Translations under genes and position numbers: made by a program | Shown: positions 30,201-33,200 of the stretch, piece by piece | How the letters are laid out: each line of letters begins with the position of its first letter | Position numbering within the stretch: the stretch's first letter is position 1 | Origin: Scenedesmus sp. PABB004 | Taxonomy: Eukaryota | Direction: 5' to 3' | Assembly: GCA_014905635.1 (NCBI GenBank) | Contig: JABVCE010000031.1 | Span: 62,001-126,000 of the forward strand | DNA length: 64,000 nt | The notes under the pieces: generated by a model | The model's database searches: none | What the model saw: the letters and a program-made list of their open reading frames with translations, nothing else | What the model was told of the DNA's origin: nothing

Positions 30201-33200
30201 CGCCGGGGCGCTCCCTCACCTCCCCTCCCTCACCTCTCTCACCTCCCCACCCGCCCGCGCTCACTCACCCGCCCGCCGCCCGCCGCCCGCACCCGCCCGC
30301 CCGCGCCGCCGCCGCCGCCGCCGCCGCCGCATGCGCAGCAACGGCAGCGCGCTGGTGCGCGAGGTGCGTGAGAAGAAGGACAAGGACAAGAGCCGGCTGC
30401 GCTTCTGGGACATGGCGGGCAGCAAGATGGGCAACATCACGGGCCTCACCGCGGAGGAGGAGGGCGAGGCCAAGCGCCGCGCCGACGAGGCGGTGCGTGT
30501 GGTGTGCGTGTGTGTGTGTTTGGGGTGTGTGTGTGTGGGGGGGGGGGGGGGGCTGTGGGGGGGCGCGCGGGGGGCTGCTGTGTTTTGGGGAGTTTGGGCG
30601 GCGTCTTGCGGGGGGAGGGCCGGGGCGGCGCCTGCGGCGGCGGCGGCGGCGCAGGGCACGGCGGCGCGGCGGTCGCGCGCGCGCCGCGCGTGACGCGCGC
30701 GCCGCGCGCCGCGCGCGCCGCGCAGGCGGCGGCTGGGCTCGGCGACGACGGCGACGACGACGACCCGGGGGGCCGCAAGGCCAACCAGTTCAAGAGCCAC
30801 CTCAAGAAGAGCGAGGCTGCGAGCGAGTTCAGCCGCACCAAGACCATGGCCCAGCAGCGCCGCAGCTTGCCCGTGTATGGCGTGCGGGAGGAGCTGCTGC
30901 AGGTGAGGGGGTGGGCGTGTGTGGGTGTGGGTGGGAGGCGGGGGGCGCGGGGGCGCGCGGACCGCCCTGCAGGCTGCGGGGCCGGCGGGGCGCGCGCGCG
31001 GGGCGCCGCGGGGCGCCGCCGCGCGCCTCGCCCGCACACCCCCTAAAACCGCCGCCGCTGCCCCGCTCCCACACCCTAAACCCCGCCAGGTTATCCGGGA
31101 GAACCCCGTGACGATCGTGGTCGGTGAGACGGGCAGCGGCAAGACCACGCAGGCGCGGGCCGCGGCGCCTGGGGCGGCGCGGCGCGGGCCTGGGGCGGCG
31201 CGCCGCGCGGCGCGGCGGCTTGCTCGCAGCGACTCACGCCCTGGTCGGAAATTCGCAAAACCGCCGCCTCGAGCCCGCCCCTAAACCGCCGCCCCCCGAT
31301 CCCCGCCCTAAACCCCGCAGATGACCCAGTTCCTGCACGAGGACGGCTACACCTCGCTGGGCATCATCGGCTGCACCCAGGTGGGCGCGCGTGGGGGCGT
31401 GCGTGGGCGTGCGTGGGGGCGTGTGGGCGTGTGTGGGCGTGTGGGCGTGATATTGTGTGTGTGGGCGTGTGTTTATTGATGATGGGGGTGTTGGTGCGTG
31501 TTTGCGGGGCGGAAGGGAGAGGGATAGGGTGGAAGGGGGGGGGGGGGGGGCGTGCTCCCAGGCGGCGCCGGCGCCGCGGCGCGCCCCCGCTCGGCTGGCG
31601 CGTGTGCTGCCCGCAACGCTCTGGACCGCGTTGCGCGCTGCGCACGCGCCAGCCGGGCGGGGGCATGCCGCGCGGCGGGGGGCGTGCACCTAGGCAGCGA
31701 CAGCGCGGCGCACCCCCGCCCGGCTGGGAGCGTGACCGGCTGCGCAAGCGCCTGCGCACGCGCCAGCCGGGCGGGGGCGCGCCGCGCGGCGCGCCGCGGG
31801 GCGCGCTCCCAGGCGGCGGCGGGGGCCTGCGCCGCGCTGGCGGCGGCAGCTGCCTCCCCGCCGGTGAGCCTCGGGGCTGGCGCAGGTGTTGTGCGTGCCC
31901 CGCACCACCTGCCGCCAGCCCCGAGGCGCACCGGCGGCGTCGAGCCGCTGCGCCCGGCGCGCCGTGCGGCCCGCGCGTGCCTCGCTCCCCCTCCCCTGCC
32001 CTCCCTCCCCACAGCCTCCCGCCCCTCCCTCTCTGCCCCTCACACCTCTCCCACACCCACTTACACGTGCGACGCCCCGCCCCGCGCCGCCCGCCCGCCC
32101 GCCCGCCCCACCCAAACCGTGAACCCTTAACCCTAAACCCCCGCAGCCGCGCCGCGTGGCCGCGATGAGCGTGGCCAAGCGCGTGAGCGAGGAGATGGGC
32201 GTCGAGCTCGGCCAGGAGGTGCGGCGCGGCGCGCCGCGGGGCGGGTTCGGGCTGAGAGGCGGCAGGGCTTTGGGCGGCAGGGCTGAGGCGGCGGGCGCGA
32301 CGCGCCCCGGGGCTGCGCCCTGCTCGGGCCGGGCGGCGCGCCGGCGCGCCGCTCACGCCGCCGCGCCCGCTCCTCTCGCGCCCCGCCCTCCAAACCCTGG
32401 ACCCCAGGTCGGCTACTCCATTCGCTTTGAGGACTGCACCAGCGACAAGACCTTCATCAAGTACATGACAGGTGCGGTGTGTGTGGGGGGGGGCAGGGGG
32501 GGGCGACAGGGGAAGGCAGGGGGTGTGCCAGGGTGTGTGTGGGGGGGACGGGGGGGGGGGGGGGGGGTCTCAAGGCGGTGCGTGTGACCGCGCCCCAGCC
32601 GCTGGTGGACGCTGTGCGCAGGCGTGCCGCCGCGCAGCATCCCACCAGCGGCTGGTGCGCGGTCACCGCGCGGCGCGCCGCGCGGCGCGGCGCGGCGGCG
32701 CTCCGGGCGGAGCAGCAGGGGCGCCCTGGCGGCTGCGCGGGCCGCGCGGGGGCAGTGCCGCGGCGCGCCGCGCTCCCGCCGCGGCGCGGCGCCCCGCGGC
32801 GGCGGCGGCGCGCGCCCTGGGTTGCTGTGCTCGCCCCGTGTCGCCGGCGCACTCATCCCAGGGCGCGCGCCGCCGCCGCCGCCGCCGCCGCGCTCCCTCA
32901 CCTCCCTCCCCCTCCCCCTCCCTCCCCTCTCTCCCTCCCTCCCCTCTCTCCCTCCCTCTCACACACGCCTCCCTCCCTCTCACACACGCCTCCCTCCCCC
33001 TCCCCGCAAAACCCTAAACCCTGGCCCCTCAGACGGCGTGCTGCTGCGTGAGACGCTGAGCAGCGACGACCTGTTCCAGTACAAGGCGGTCATCATGGAC
33101 GAGGCCCACGAGCGCAGCCTCAACACGGACGTGCTCTTCGGCATCCTCAAAAAGGCGCGTGTGCGCGCGTGTGTGCGTGTGTGTGCGGGGTGGTTTGGGG

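Follow-up and report, generated by a model that had tools for sequence, protein, structure and literature searches.

Intron 10 of a PRP16/DHX38-like splicing-helicase gene contains a run of three hairpins that had been predicted to form a miRNA-like family with an invariant 27-nt 3' arm. Do these hairpins encode small RNAs, or are they palindromes that arose and persisted as DNA? We analyzed the array within the 64-kb stretch of DNA in which it lies (hereafter the window), which belongs to a genome with a G+C content of approximately 80%. A protein search places the host only roughly, as chlorophycean-like: among the 120 matches listed, the closest named ones came from Tetradesmus obliquus (93%) and Scenedesmus (92%), and none was identical to the PRP16-like product.

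A three-unit array in the middle of intron 10

The boundaries of intron 10 are defined by exons 10 and 11, which match adjoining residues of human PRP16. The intron and its array comprise the following features:

31321..31380, + strand: exon 10, 20 aa, aligned with human PRP16 residues 565-584 (E 2.9e-5)
31381..32146, + strand: intron 10, GT...AG, 766 nt, phase 0, holding the array (flanking exons aligned with contiguous PRP16 residues)
31381..31546, + strand: G/GT-rich 5' part of intron 10, ending in a run of 16 G (sequence)
31547..31567, + strand: leader copy 1 (repeat search and pattern match)
31575..31672, + strand: hairpin 1, 33-position stem plus 8-bp apical stem (inverted-repeat search, folding)
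31638..31664, + strand: 27-mer copy 1, in the 3' arm of hairpin 1 (exact match)
31679..31699, + strand: leader copy 2 (repeat search and pattern match)
31703..31787, + strand: hairpin 2, 25-nt arms 96% complementary, tip rearranged relative to hairpin 1 (inverted-repeat search, folding)
31740..31764, + strand: 12-nt tandem duplication in the tip of hairpin 2, running into the 27-mer (Tandem Repeats Finder: period 12, 2.1 copies, 92% matches)
31752..31778, + strand: 27-mer copy 2, in the 3' arm of hairpin 2 (exact match)
31798..31818, + strand: leader copy 3 (repeat search and pattern match)
31858..31937, + strand: hairpin 3, 25-nt arms 96% complementary, sequence mostly unlike hairpins 1 and 2 (inverted-repeat search, folding)
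31986..32146, + strand: C-rich 3' part of intron 10, in which CCTAAACC lies 7 nt upstream of the 3' splice site (sequence)
32147..32221, + strand: exon 11, 25 aa, beginning PRRVAAMSV, aligned with human PRP16 residues 585-609 (E 1.8e-6)

The array is a tandem repeat of three homologous head-to-tail units of 132, 119 and approximately 140 nt, in each of which a spacer starting in a G-run, called the 'leader', precedes an imperfect palindrome. All the coordinates of the original prediction were reproduced, namely the three leader starts, the exact identity of the two 27-mers, the positions of hairpins 2 and 3, and the stem of hairpin 1, whose arms (31575-31607 and 31640-31672) pair over 33 positions with three G-U pairs and a single mismatch (C-A). 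Scored as 25-nt repeats, the leaders were 100, 80 and 92% identical at spacings of 132 and 119 nt, while the 3' blocks of units 1 and 2 were spaced by 114 nt; leaders and the 40–47-nt 3' block together showed 80–95% identity at spacings of 114–132 nt. The hairpin of unit 3 aligned only loosely to those of units 1 and 2. As the units are less than approximately 70% alike overall, the array was not called by Tandem Repeats Finder, for which none of the 77 rows in the searched sequence had a period of 115–135 nt.

Allowing up to two mismatches, the leader had four matches in the window (0.11 expected), the fourth of which (12274, minus strand) has no hairpin after it (fold z +2.0). The 27-mer had three matches with up to three mismatches (0.00 expected); the third corresponds to the 5' arm of hairpin 1 itself, read on the minus strand, and there was no further match in either orientation in the 64 kb beyond hairpins 1 and 2. 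Likewise, BLAST with the intron as query and the entire window as target found no other copy of the hairpin bodies. Given the similarity of the leaders and 3' blocks at short spacing, and the confinement of the bodies to this intron within the window, we consider the units to be local copies.

The imperfect palindrome of hairpin 1 extends to 57-nt arms that are 81% complementary (31563-31619 and 31628-31684, spanning 31563-31684), and a folding energy of -108.2 kcal/mol was predicted for 31567-31680; for the three palindromes, the predicted stem-loops ranged from -79 to -108 kcal/mol. The 391-nt array as a whole folded at -343.4 kcal/mol compared to -276.5 +/- 7.0 kcal/mol for 100 shuffled sequences (z -9.5). 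Its minus strand folded as well as its plus strand (z -11.5 versus -9.5), and for ten hairpin windows within the gene the minus-strand energies were as low as those of the plus strand. Wobble-type mismatches, counted over 13 hairpins, were also not significantly biased (12 sense versus 7 antisense, p = 0.36). Since both strands fold equally and the wobble bias is not significant, the palindromes appear to be a property of the DNA.

A metagenome scan using a 60-aa exon query yielded 462 relatives, of which the best 80 (at most 88% protein identity) were kept. No orthologous intron 10 was found among these best 80 of 462; 68 of the 70 loci with a match at this position read through the junction without an intron, which is weak evidence, as these relatives are mostly distant and probably intron-poor. 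The 27-mer was absent from the same 80 loci, where leader-like strings occurred only six times, each with five mismatches, and it had no exact match in viral contigs.

Arm conservation and the small-RNA interpretation

Whether the 3' arm seems conserved while the rest of the hairpin varies depends on how the hairpin tip is treated. Twenty-seven nucleotides are indeed identical in two of the three units, and such a run would be unlikely if mismatches were spread uniformly with the hairpin tip included (P = 0.008), but with the tip excluded it is not (P = 0.23). Mismatches between units 1 and 2 concentrate in this tip, where they fill 16 of the 25 aligned columns and a further 23 columns are gaps, although hairpin-tip alignments between paralogues are unreliable. 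The 5' block carries 7 mismatches in 48 positions versus 3 in 41 for the 3' block (Fisher p = 0.33), and the outer arms common to both units have 2 substitutions in 24 positions each. The source of the asymmetry is a single rearranged hairpin tip in unit 2; two paralogues and what is essentially a single event underlie it, and the signal for an invariant 3' arm is weak.

The array could nevertheless be an intronic cluster of small-RNA precursors, whereby Dicer-like cutting would release miRNA-like or hairpin-siRNA products with the 3' arm in the 27-mer as the guide, the units being a tandem-duplicated paralogous family comparable to polycistronic miRNA clusters. In line with this idea, all three hairpins have the stem-loop form of miRNA precursors (stems of 25–33 positions with at most four non-Watson-Crick positions), the inner part of the 27-mer is paired at approximately 20 of 21 positions in both unit 1 and unit 2, and 27 nt are shared by these units. 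Moreover, a second array, in intron 15 (described below), shares a 3'-arm motif among its three hairpins. There is also a parallel in Chlamydomonas reinhardtii, a relevant comparison for a chlorophycean-like host, in which 61.1% of miRNAs in the high-confidence set are reported to derive from introns (9) or UTRs (2) of mRNA precursors (PMC4817775), while template switching has been proposed as an origin of de novo miRNA genes (PMC10710096). Even so, we consider this possibility unlikely, although it is a serious rival. The arm asymmetry loses significance once the rearranged tip is removed, unit 3 lacks the conserved arm, and folding shows no strand preference. The arm is unmatched elsewhere in the 64 kb, and the leader, for which a role in processing had been suggested, is missing at all other hairpins of the window. 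A match to a described miRNA family was not found in Rfam, where a search at E values up to 10 gave eight matches, all to hairpin 3 and all to generic miRNA families below their gathering score (best 38.2 bits versus 70). Finally, the G+C content of the arm (approximately 90%) would probably be extreme for a guide strand.

The precursors described in C. reinhardtii (Valli et al. 2016, PMC4817775) resemble the array in being stem-loops in spliceosomal introns of chlorophycean protein-coding genes, and as they are reported not to be conserved between species, a lineage-specific hairpin would be expected. However, according to that study they are defined by DCL3-dependent reads with a star strand, while the array is known from its sequence, and the stems of the array differ in being approximately 85–90% G+C, arranged in tandem and equally foldable on both strands.

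A cluster of palindromes within one gene

The array is one of several palindromic features concentrated in a single gene. Long Watson-Crick palindromes scoring at least 18 gave ten hits, corresponding to nine hairpins, compared to 0.05 per shuffled window, and all of them fell within 29916-35829. When the 70 lowest-energy 100-nt windows of the 64 kb were examined, 11 had a z of -4.4 or lower, 10 of which lay in introns of the PRP16-like gene, even though this gene makes up only 19% of the window (P = 7e-7 by windows; P = 3e-4 with paralogues collapsed, 6 of 7 lineages). The other palindromic features of the gene are as follows:

29905..30235, + strand: two-hairpin module in intron 6, with hairpin A at 29916-29976 and hairpin B at 30112-30211 (folding, repeat and palindrome searches)
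32574..32910, + strand: copy of the module in intron 12, with A' at 32584-32666 and B' at 32796-32882 (repeat comparison with intron 6)
33284..33355, + strand: hairpin in intron 13 (palindrome search; fold z -6.4)
34085..34400, + strand: second three-hairpin array, in intron 15, with j1 at 34096-34158, j2 at 34200-34303 and j3 at 34326-34395 (repeat search; fold z -9.9)
35729..35829, + strand: hairpin with 27-nt perfect arms in one of the gene's later introns (palindrome search, folding)

The modules of introns 6 and 12 form the strongest non-simple repeat of the window (29965-30205 versus 32647-32881, 90.5% over 242 nt). Their homology is confined to a core of approximately 335 nt, with flanks that align up to the splice sites by composition only. 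The array of intron 15 is unrelated in sequence to that of intron 10, and its 3'-arm motif (34128, 34282 and 34358) is present in copies of 100, 85 and 75%. Overall, the hairpin lineages of the gene are mutually unrelated in sequence, and de novo formation of palindromes from local sequence would fit this better than a single mobile family. A candidate motif for linking all the hairpins, GGCTGGYGCG, was discarded: it and its complement occur 10 and 7 times in the window, mostly off the hairpins. Likewise, a 43-nt exact repeat (13763 and 62313) is merely a (CCGCG)n microsatellite.

The introns of this gene could conceivably be a nursery of young small-RNA genes, in which template switching makes hairpins in mid-intron and duplication multiplies them, so that the arrays of introns 10 and 15, each with a fixed 3p arm, would be newborn polycistronic miRNA or hairpin-siRNA clusters, possibly feeding back on the expression of the host splicing-helicase gene. 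We regard this scenario as quite improbable.

Mobile elements offer another explanation, whereby the hairpins would be MITE-like or foldback transposons, or relics of intron-generating ones (introners), that entered or made introns, and the array a nested or repeated insertion. The two-hairpin module present in both intron 6 and intron 12, at approximately 90% identity, would suit such an origin, as would the unshared position of intron 10 (68 of 70 loci read through), a pattern that gain of the intron in one lineage could produce. Furthermore, introners are described as common in algae (PMC9860276), and the internally symmetrical stwintrons of the Hypoxylaceae (PMC8469720) are a further system for comparison; taken together, these systems share with our locus similar introns (6 and 12), inverted repeats, an algal host and an unshared intron position. 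The differences, relative to what these sources describe, are that dispersed copies are missing within the 64 kb, that homology is restricted to a core, and that target-site duplications were not seen. Specifically, no hairpin copy was found outside the PRP16-like gene in this 64-kb intron-rich window, in the 80 metagenomic loci or in viral contigs. By eye, no clear pair of terminal inverted repeats or target-site duplications was seen at the intron 6/12 module or at the ends of the array, where low-complexity flanks blur the ends. The shared cores of introns 6 and 12 stop short of the splice sites, and neither spans its intron or abuts a splice site. The leader, at 21–25 nt, is longer than the target-site duplications typical of DNA transposons. 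As the hairpin lineages are unrelated, several different families would also need to have hit one gene, and we consider a mobile origin improbable.

The confinement of the hairpins to a splicing-helicase gene might instead reflect selection on intron structure, with hairpins kept for the splicing of the helicase's own pre-mRNA, either through compaction of a long intron or through feedback sensing of RNA-unwinding or splicing capacity. Intron 10 as a whole was predicted to close on itself (-566 kcal/mol; z -9.4 against 20 shuffles), and its G-rich 5' and C-rich 3' parts gained -133.5 kcal/mol upon pairing in a cofold prediction. Such an arrangement recalls the structure-dependent introns reported by Lin et al. 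(2016, PMC4691745), a vertebrate intron class that relies on simple repeats pairing end to end; here too, G/GT-rich 5' and C/CA-rich 3' ends can pair and loop out the intron. In addition, a miRNA precursor lies within intron 14 of Arabidopsis DCL1 and serves to repress that gene, according to work cited in PMC4817775. However, the end pairing of intron 10 appears compositional, with a z of only -1.3 against shuffled 3' parts and equal pairing with the 3' parts of other introns, which speaks against a specific zipper between its ends and sets it apart from the vertebrate introns, among which, as described in that study, the central looped-out hairpin array also has no counterpart. Moreover, 445.6 kb around the DEAH-helicase genes of 80 other organisms contained only six such palindrome hits at three places, suggesting that hairpin-rich introns are not a conserved trait of this gene, albeit among distant relatives. 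We therefore see only a slight chance that the structure was selected.

As a side observation, a crude exon map showed a strong G-rich 5'/C-rich 3' polarity in the PRP16-like gene, where the right flank exceeded the left in 18 of 24 cases, but none in the rest of the window (56 of 107). Since C-rich 3' intron ends were also seen by eye in other genes of the window, this polarity was given no weight.

A possible origin in DNA-level copying

We infer that template switching and tandem duplication created the palindromes of the array and maintained them as DNA, and that they fold in the pre-mRNA in vivo and are spliced out with the intron; we estimate the probability of this reading at about one half. 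A palindrome would first have arisen or grown in mid-intron via intrastrand template switching at replication, after which unequal exchange or slippage would have multiplied the leader-plus-palindrome unit into a tandem array. Arm-to-arm copying would then have preserved complementarity within each copy while the tips were rearranged. At the RNA stage, the three palindromes would fold co-transcriptionally into very stable stem-loops and be removed with the intron. The predicted consequence is structural, in that approximately 380 of the 766 intron nucleotides would collapse into three rods and so bring the 5' splice site effectively closer to the branch region. This reading does not call for any sequence-specific role in trans.

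The pattern of changes among paralogous hairpins is consistent with such copying, as arms are more self-complementary than they are similar to their paralogues. Hairpins A, A', B, B', 2 and 3 each have no more than one mismatch in arms of 24–31 nt, while paralogues diverge in their inner arms and tips. Multi-base changes also tend to keep the pairing: between A and A', both-side changes kept the pair in three of three cases and broke none, and between hairpins 1 and 2 they kept it in two of three and broke one. In intron 15, j2 corresponds to the basal stem of j1 with a new palindrome of more than 40 bp at its tip. These features are in line with previous work reporting that replication template switching can make perfect stems and repair the pairing of existing ones (PMC8794818) and that it homogenizes and expands the arms of inverted repeats (PMC13100816). 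Near-perfect stems made from local sequence, pair-keeping multi-base changes, tip expansion and arm homogenization are thus shared with the hairpins of these and a related study (PMC8794818; PMC10710096; PMC13100816). The studies in question draw their events from phylogenies that include ancestral states, whereas our reading compares paralogues within one gene.

Several observations weigh against such an origin. If mutation were the only process at work, palindromes should be seeded throughout non-coding DNA. Here they are confined to one gene of the window, a clustering that the template-switch literature, as far as we cite it, does not explain; some local or gene-specific factor acts there. 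Furthermore, each of the two independent arrays (introns 10 and 15) retains a 3'-arm motif amid variable 5' arms and tips, as would be expected of a small-RNA family. The 27-nt run remains unlikely under uniform mismatches, and the wobble tally leans, not significantly, towards the sense strand.

If the array is only palindromic DNA, it is of descriptive value, as a clear nuclear case of palindromes born, duplicated and kept paired in the introns of an extremely GC-rich alga, and concentrated in one gene. If small RNAs are produced, the locus would show how template switching combined with tandem duplication gives rise to a miRNA-like family in a host gene, a route that has been proposed in the literature but rarely caught in progress. 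Under either reading, genome scans should take into account that, at 80% GC, arm conservation shared by two recent tandem copies does not by itself amount to a miRNA signature.

Hairpin repeats that fill introns and spacers, often in arrays, are also described for the organelles of Volvox (PMC2670323) and of other chlorophycean and green algae. In Volvox they average approximately 50 nt and carry TTTA-type loops, and such organellar repeats are short and occur in high copy number, whereas the palindromes studied here are nuclear, 80–110 nt long, approximately 85% G+C and low-copy.

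The intron 10 array and its host gene

The window is G+C-rich throughout (73-84% in 32 of 32 two-kilobase bins) and, according to a crude codon-position scan, crowded with short exons, the introns between them measuring a few hundred nucleotides each. The translations of the two exons flanking the array, 31321-31380 and 32147-32221, resemble residues 565-584 (E = 2.9e-5) and 585-609 (E = 1.8e-6) of human PRP16/DHX38, respectively, and since these residues are contiguous, 31381-32146 is an intron (766 nt, GT...AG, phase 0). If the start codon is placed at 27265, as presumed, the count confirms its assignment as intron 10. 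For a 60-aa exon of this PRP16-like gene, the best named relatives were Tetradesmus obliquus (93%) and Scenedesmus sp. (92%), and no identical protein occurred among the 120 matches listed. Judged by this one conserved exon, the gene most likely belongs to a chlorophycean-like green alga.

Hairpins of the PRP16-like gene (positions in the window)
29905-30235 (intron 6) and 32574-32910 (intron 12): two-hairpin module of about 335 nt, core about 90% identical
31547-31937 (+, intron 10): array of three leader-plus-hairpin units, with hairpins at 31575-31672, 31703-31787 and 31858-31937
34085-34400 (intron 15): second three-hairpin array, with hairpins at 34096-34158, 34200-34303 and 34326-34395, unrelated in sequence to the intron 10 array
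33284 and 35729: single hairpins
37254: single hairpin, weaker

The intron 10 array is a real feature. All three described copies of the 21-nt leader are present (31547, 31679 and 31798), the 27-nt 3'-arm stretch (27-mer) recurs exactly at 31638 and 31752, and hairpin 1 has the described 33 positions with three G-U pairs and one C-A mismatch, plus an 8-bp apical stem; the arms of hairpins 2 and 3 are 25 nt long and 96% complementary. The 391-nt array folds at -343.4 kcal/mol (z = -9.5), with none of 100 shuffles as good. Allowing up to two mismatches, the leader matched four times in the window (0.11 expected), and the fourth match (12274, minus strand) has no adjoining hairpin; no other hairpin of the window adjoins a leader copy. 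Overall divergence between the units is too great for Tandem Repeats Finder to report the 119-132-nt period.

Divergence between units and the 3' arm

The original prediction saw in the array one conserved arm, with the star arm and the loop free to vary. Aligned to each other, units 1 and 2 give 114 ungapped columns with 26 mismatches, besides 23 gap columns, and under randomly scattered mismatches the 27-nt identical run has P = 0.008. These mismatches are clustered: 16 lie in the hairpin tip, which spans 25 aligned columns beside the gaps, and in unit 2 a 12-nt tandem duplication at the tip (31740-31764) extends into the 27-mer. With the tip excluded, 10 mismatches remain in 89 columns, and P for the 27-nt identical run rises to 0.23; the 5' and 3' blocks do not differ (7/48 versus 3/41 mismatches, Fisher p = 0.33), and the outer stem common to both units shows 2/24 substitutions in each arm. 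The proposed pattern therefore goes back to a single tip rearrangement in one of two recent copies, and evidence for special conservation of the 3' arm is weak. In unit 3 the leader is retained, at 92% identity over 25 nt, but the arm is not.

These observations bear on the main rival explanation, an intronic small-RNA cluster. It has a fair prior because high-confidence miRNAs of Chlamydomonas are described as coming mostly from introns and UTRs (PMC4817775) and because a 3'-arm motif is shared within both arrays (introns 10 and 15), the one in intron 15 being about 22 nt long and present in three copies (34128, 34282 and 34358; 100/85/75%). Rfam returned eight matches at E ≤10, exclusively to miRNA models and every one on hairpin 3, each of them far short of its gathering score (best 38.2 versus 70), and such sub-threshold matches would be given by any GC-rich hairpin of this size. 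We consider a small-RNA cluster unlikely.

Palindromes across the gene and their origin

A window-wide scan for long Watson-Crick palindromes (score of at least 18) yielded 10 hits, corresponding to nine hairpins, versus 0.05 per shuffled window, and all 10 fall within 29916-35829, in introns of the PRP16-like gene. Among the 70 lowest-energy 100-nt segments, 11 reached z ≤ -4.4 against their own shuffles, ten of them in this gene, which makes up 19% of the window, and one at 56061 (clustering in the gene: P = 7e-7 by segments; P = 3e-4 once paralogues are collapsed, with 6/7 lineages in the gene). The remaining low-energy segments elsewhere are GC-rich only and no better than their own shuffles. 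The sole strongly exceptional hairpin segment outside the gene (56061-56160, z = -5.9) folds 18 kcal/mol better on the plus strand than on the minus strand.

BLAST between the hairpin lineages of the gene found no similarity beyond low complexity, and a transposon origin of the hairpins appears quite improbable. Within the module of introns 6 and 12, 29965-30205 and 32647-32881 are 90.5% identical over 242 nt, the top non-simple repeat of the window (self-BLAST is dominated by (CT)n and (CA/GT)n simple repeats); the linker between its hairpins is more conserved than the tips, which differ but remain paired. Paralogous copies each have a long near-perfect stem (0-1 mismatch in 24-31-nt arms) and differ from one another in inner arms and tips. 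Two-sided changes keep pairing in 3/3 cases between the first hairpins of introns 6 and 12 and in 2/3 between hairpins 1 and 2 of intron 10, with tip alignments that are unreliable. In intron 15, the middle hairpin (stem of 40-plus bp; z = -13 for its 100-nt segment) consists of the basal stem of the first hairpin topped by a new 40-plus-bp palindrome.

In the transcribed strand, a structure selected at the RNA level is expected to tolerate G-U pairs. The minus strand of the array is equally exceptional in folding (z = -11.5; plus strand -9.5), and across 13 hairpins of the gene wobble-type mismatches numbered 12 in sense versus 7 in antisense (p = 0.36). As both strands fold alike and the wobble tally shows no significant bias, the palindromy is a property of the DNA, and it speaks neither for nor against RNA-level selection.

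The array is best read, with a probability of about one half, as locally generated palindromic DNA duplicated in tandem within the intron; the palindromic unit would have formed locally, and its tandem duplication would have followed. Palindromes that are centrally rearranged are known in yeast and mouse. Stems that are kept while inner arms and tips differ match what has been described for replication template switching. This process can reportedly form a perfect stem in a single event and restore pairing in stems already present (PMC8794818), and homogenisation and expansion of inverted-repeat arms are also described for it (PMC13100816).

Intron closure and splice signals

In intron 10 the array lies between a 5' third rich in G/GT and a 3' third rich in C, and the intron is predicted to close on itself (-566 kcal/mol, z = -9.4, 20 shuffles), reminiscent of the structure-dependent introns described in teleosts (PMC4691745). 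In this predicted fold, the array would lie in the looped-out centre and the effective intron would be shortened by about half. Pairing of the ends gains -133.5 kcal/mol, with z only -1.3 versus a shuffled 3' part, and the 3' parts of other introns pair equally well with its 5' part; the end pairing is thus compositional. The peptide spanning exons 10-11 was matched in 70 of 80 metagenomic DEAH-helicase loci and was continuous across the junction in 68 of these 70, from organisms mostly distant and probably intron-poor, so the position of intron 10 is not widely shared. Only six comparable palindrome hits, at three places, occurred in 445.6 kb of such loci; hairpin-rich introns are thus no conserved trait of the gene family. 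A selected intron structure or feedback is, in our estimation, very improbable.

GTGAG/GTGAC strings open the first hairpins of the modules in introns 6 (29908-29915) and 12 (32581-32588) and hairpin 3 of the array (31863-31868). They resemble the genome's 5' splice-site consensus, and these donor-like motifs would be sequestered in stems. At least five introns of the gene, called from reading-frame continuity of the adjoining helicase exons, apparently start with GC rather than GT (31148, 33155, 33698, 34690 and 35304), an unusually high GC-AG share that fits extreme GC pressure. CCTAAACC occurs 14 times in the window versus 0.09 expected (31075, 31307, 32132, 33013 and 10 other sites); lying 6-12 nt upstream of the 3' splice site in four introns of the gene, it may be a branch-point signal very near the acceptor, and it is also similar to the plant-type telomere repeat unit. 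The 3' parts of several introns are filled by long microsatellites of the (CT)n and (CA/GT)n types (34880-35047, 16083-16175 and 18011-18182). Finally, three tandem copies of an exon end plus GTGAGG 5' splice site (37713-37741, 37777-37805 and 37850-37871) are placed at the start of the next intron, and the duplicated donors could be alternative 5' splice sites or the trace of a past duplication.
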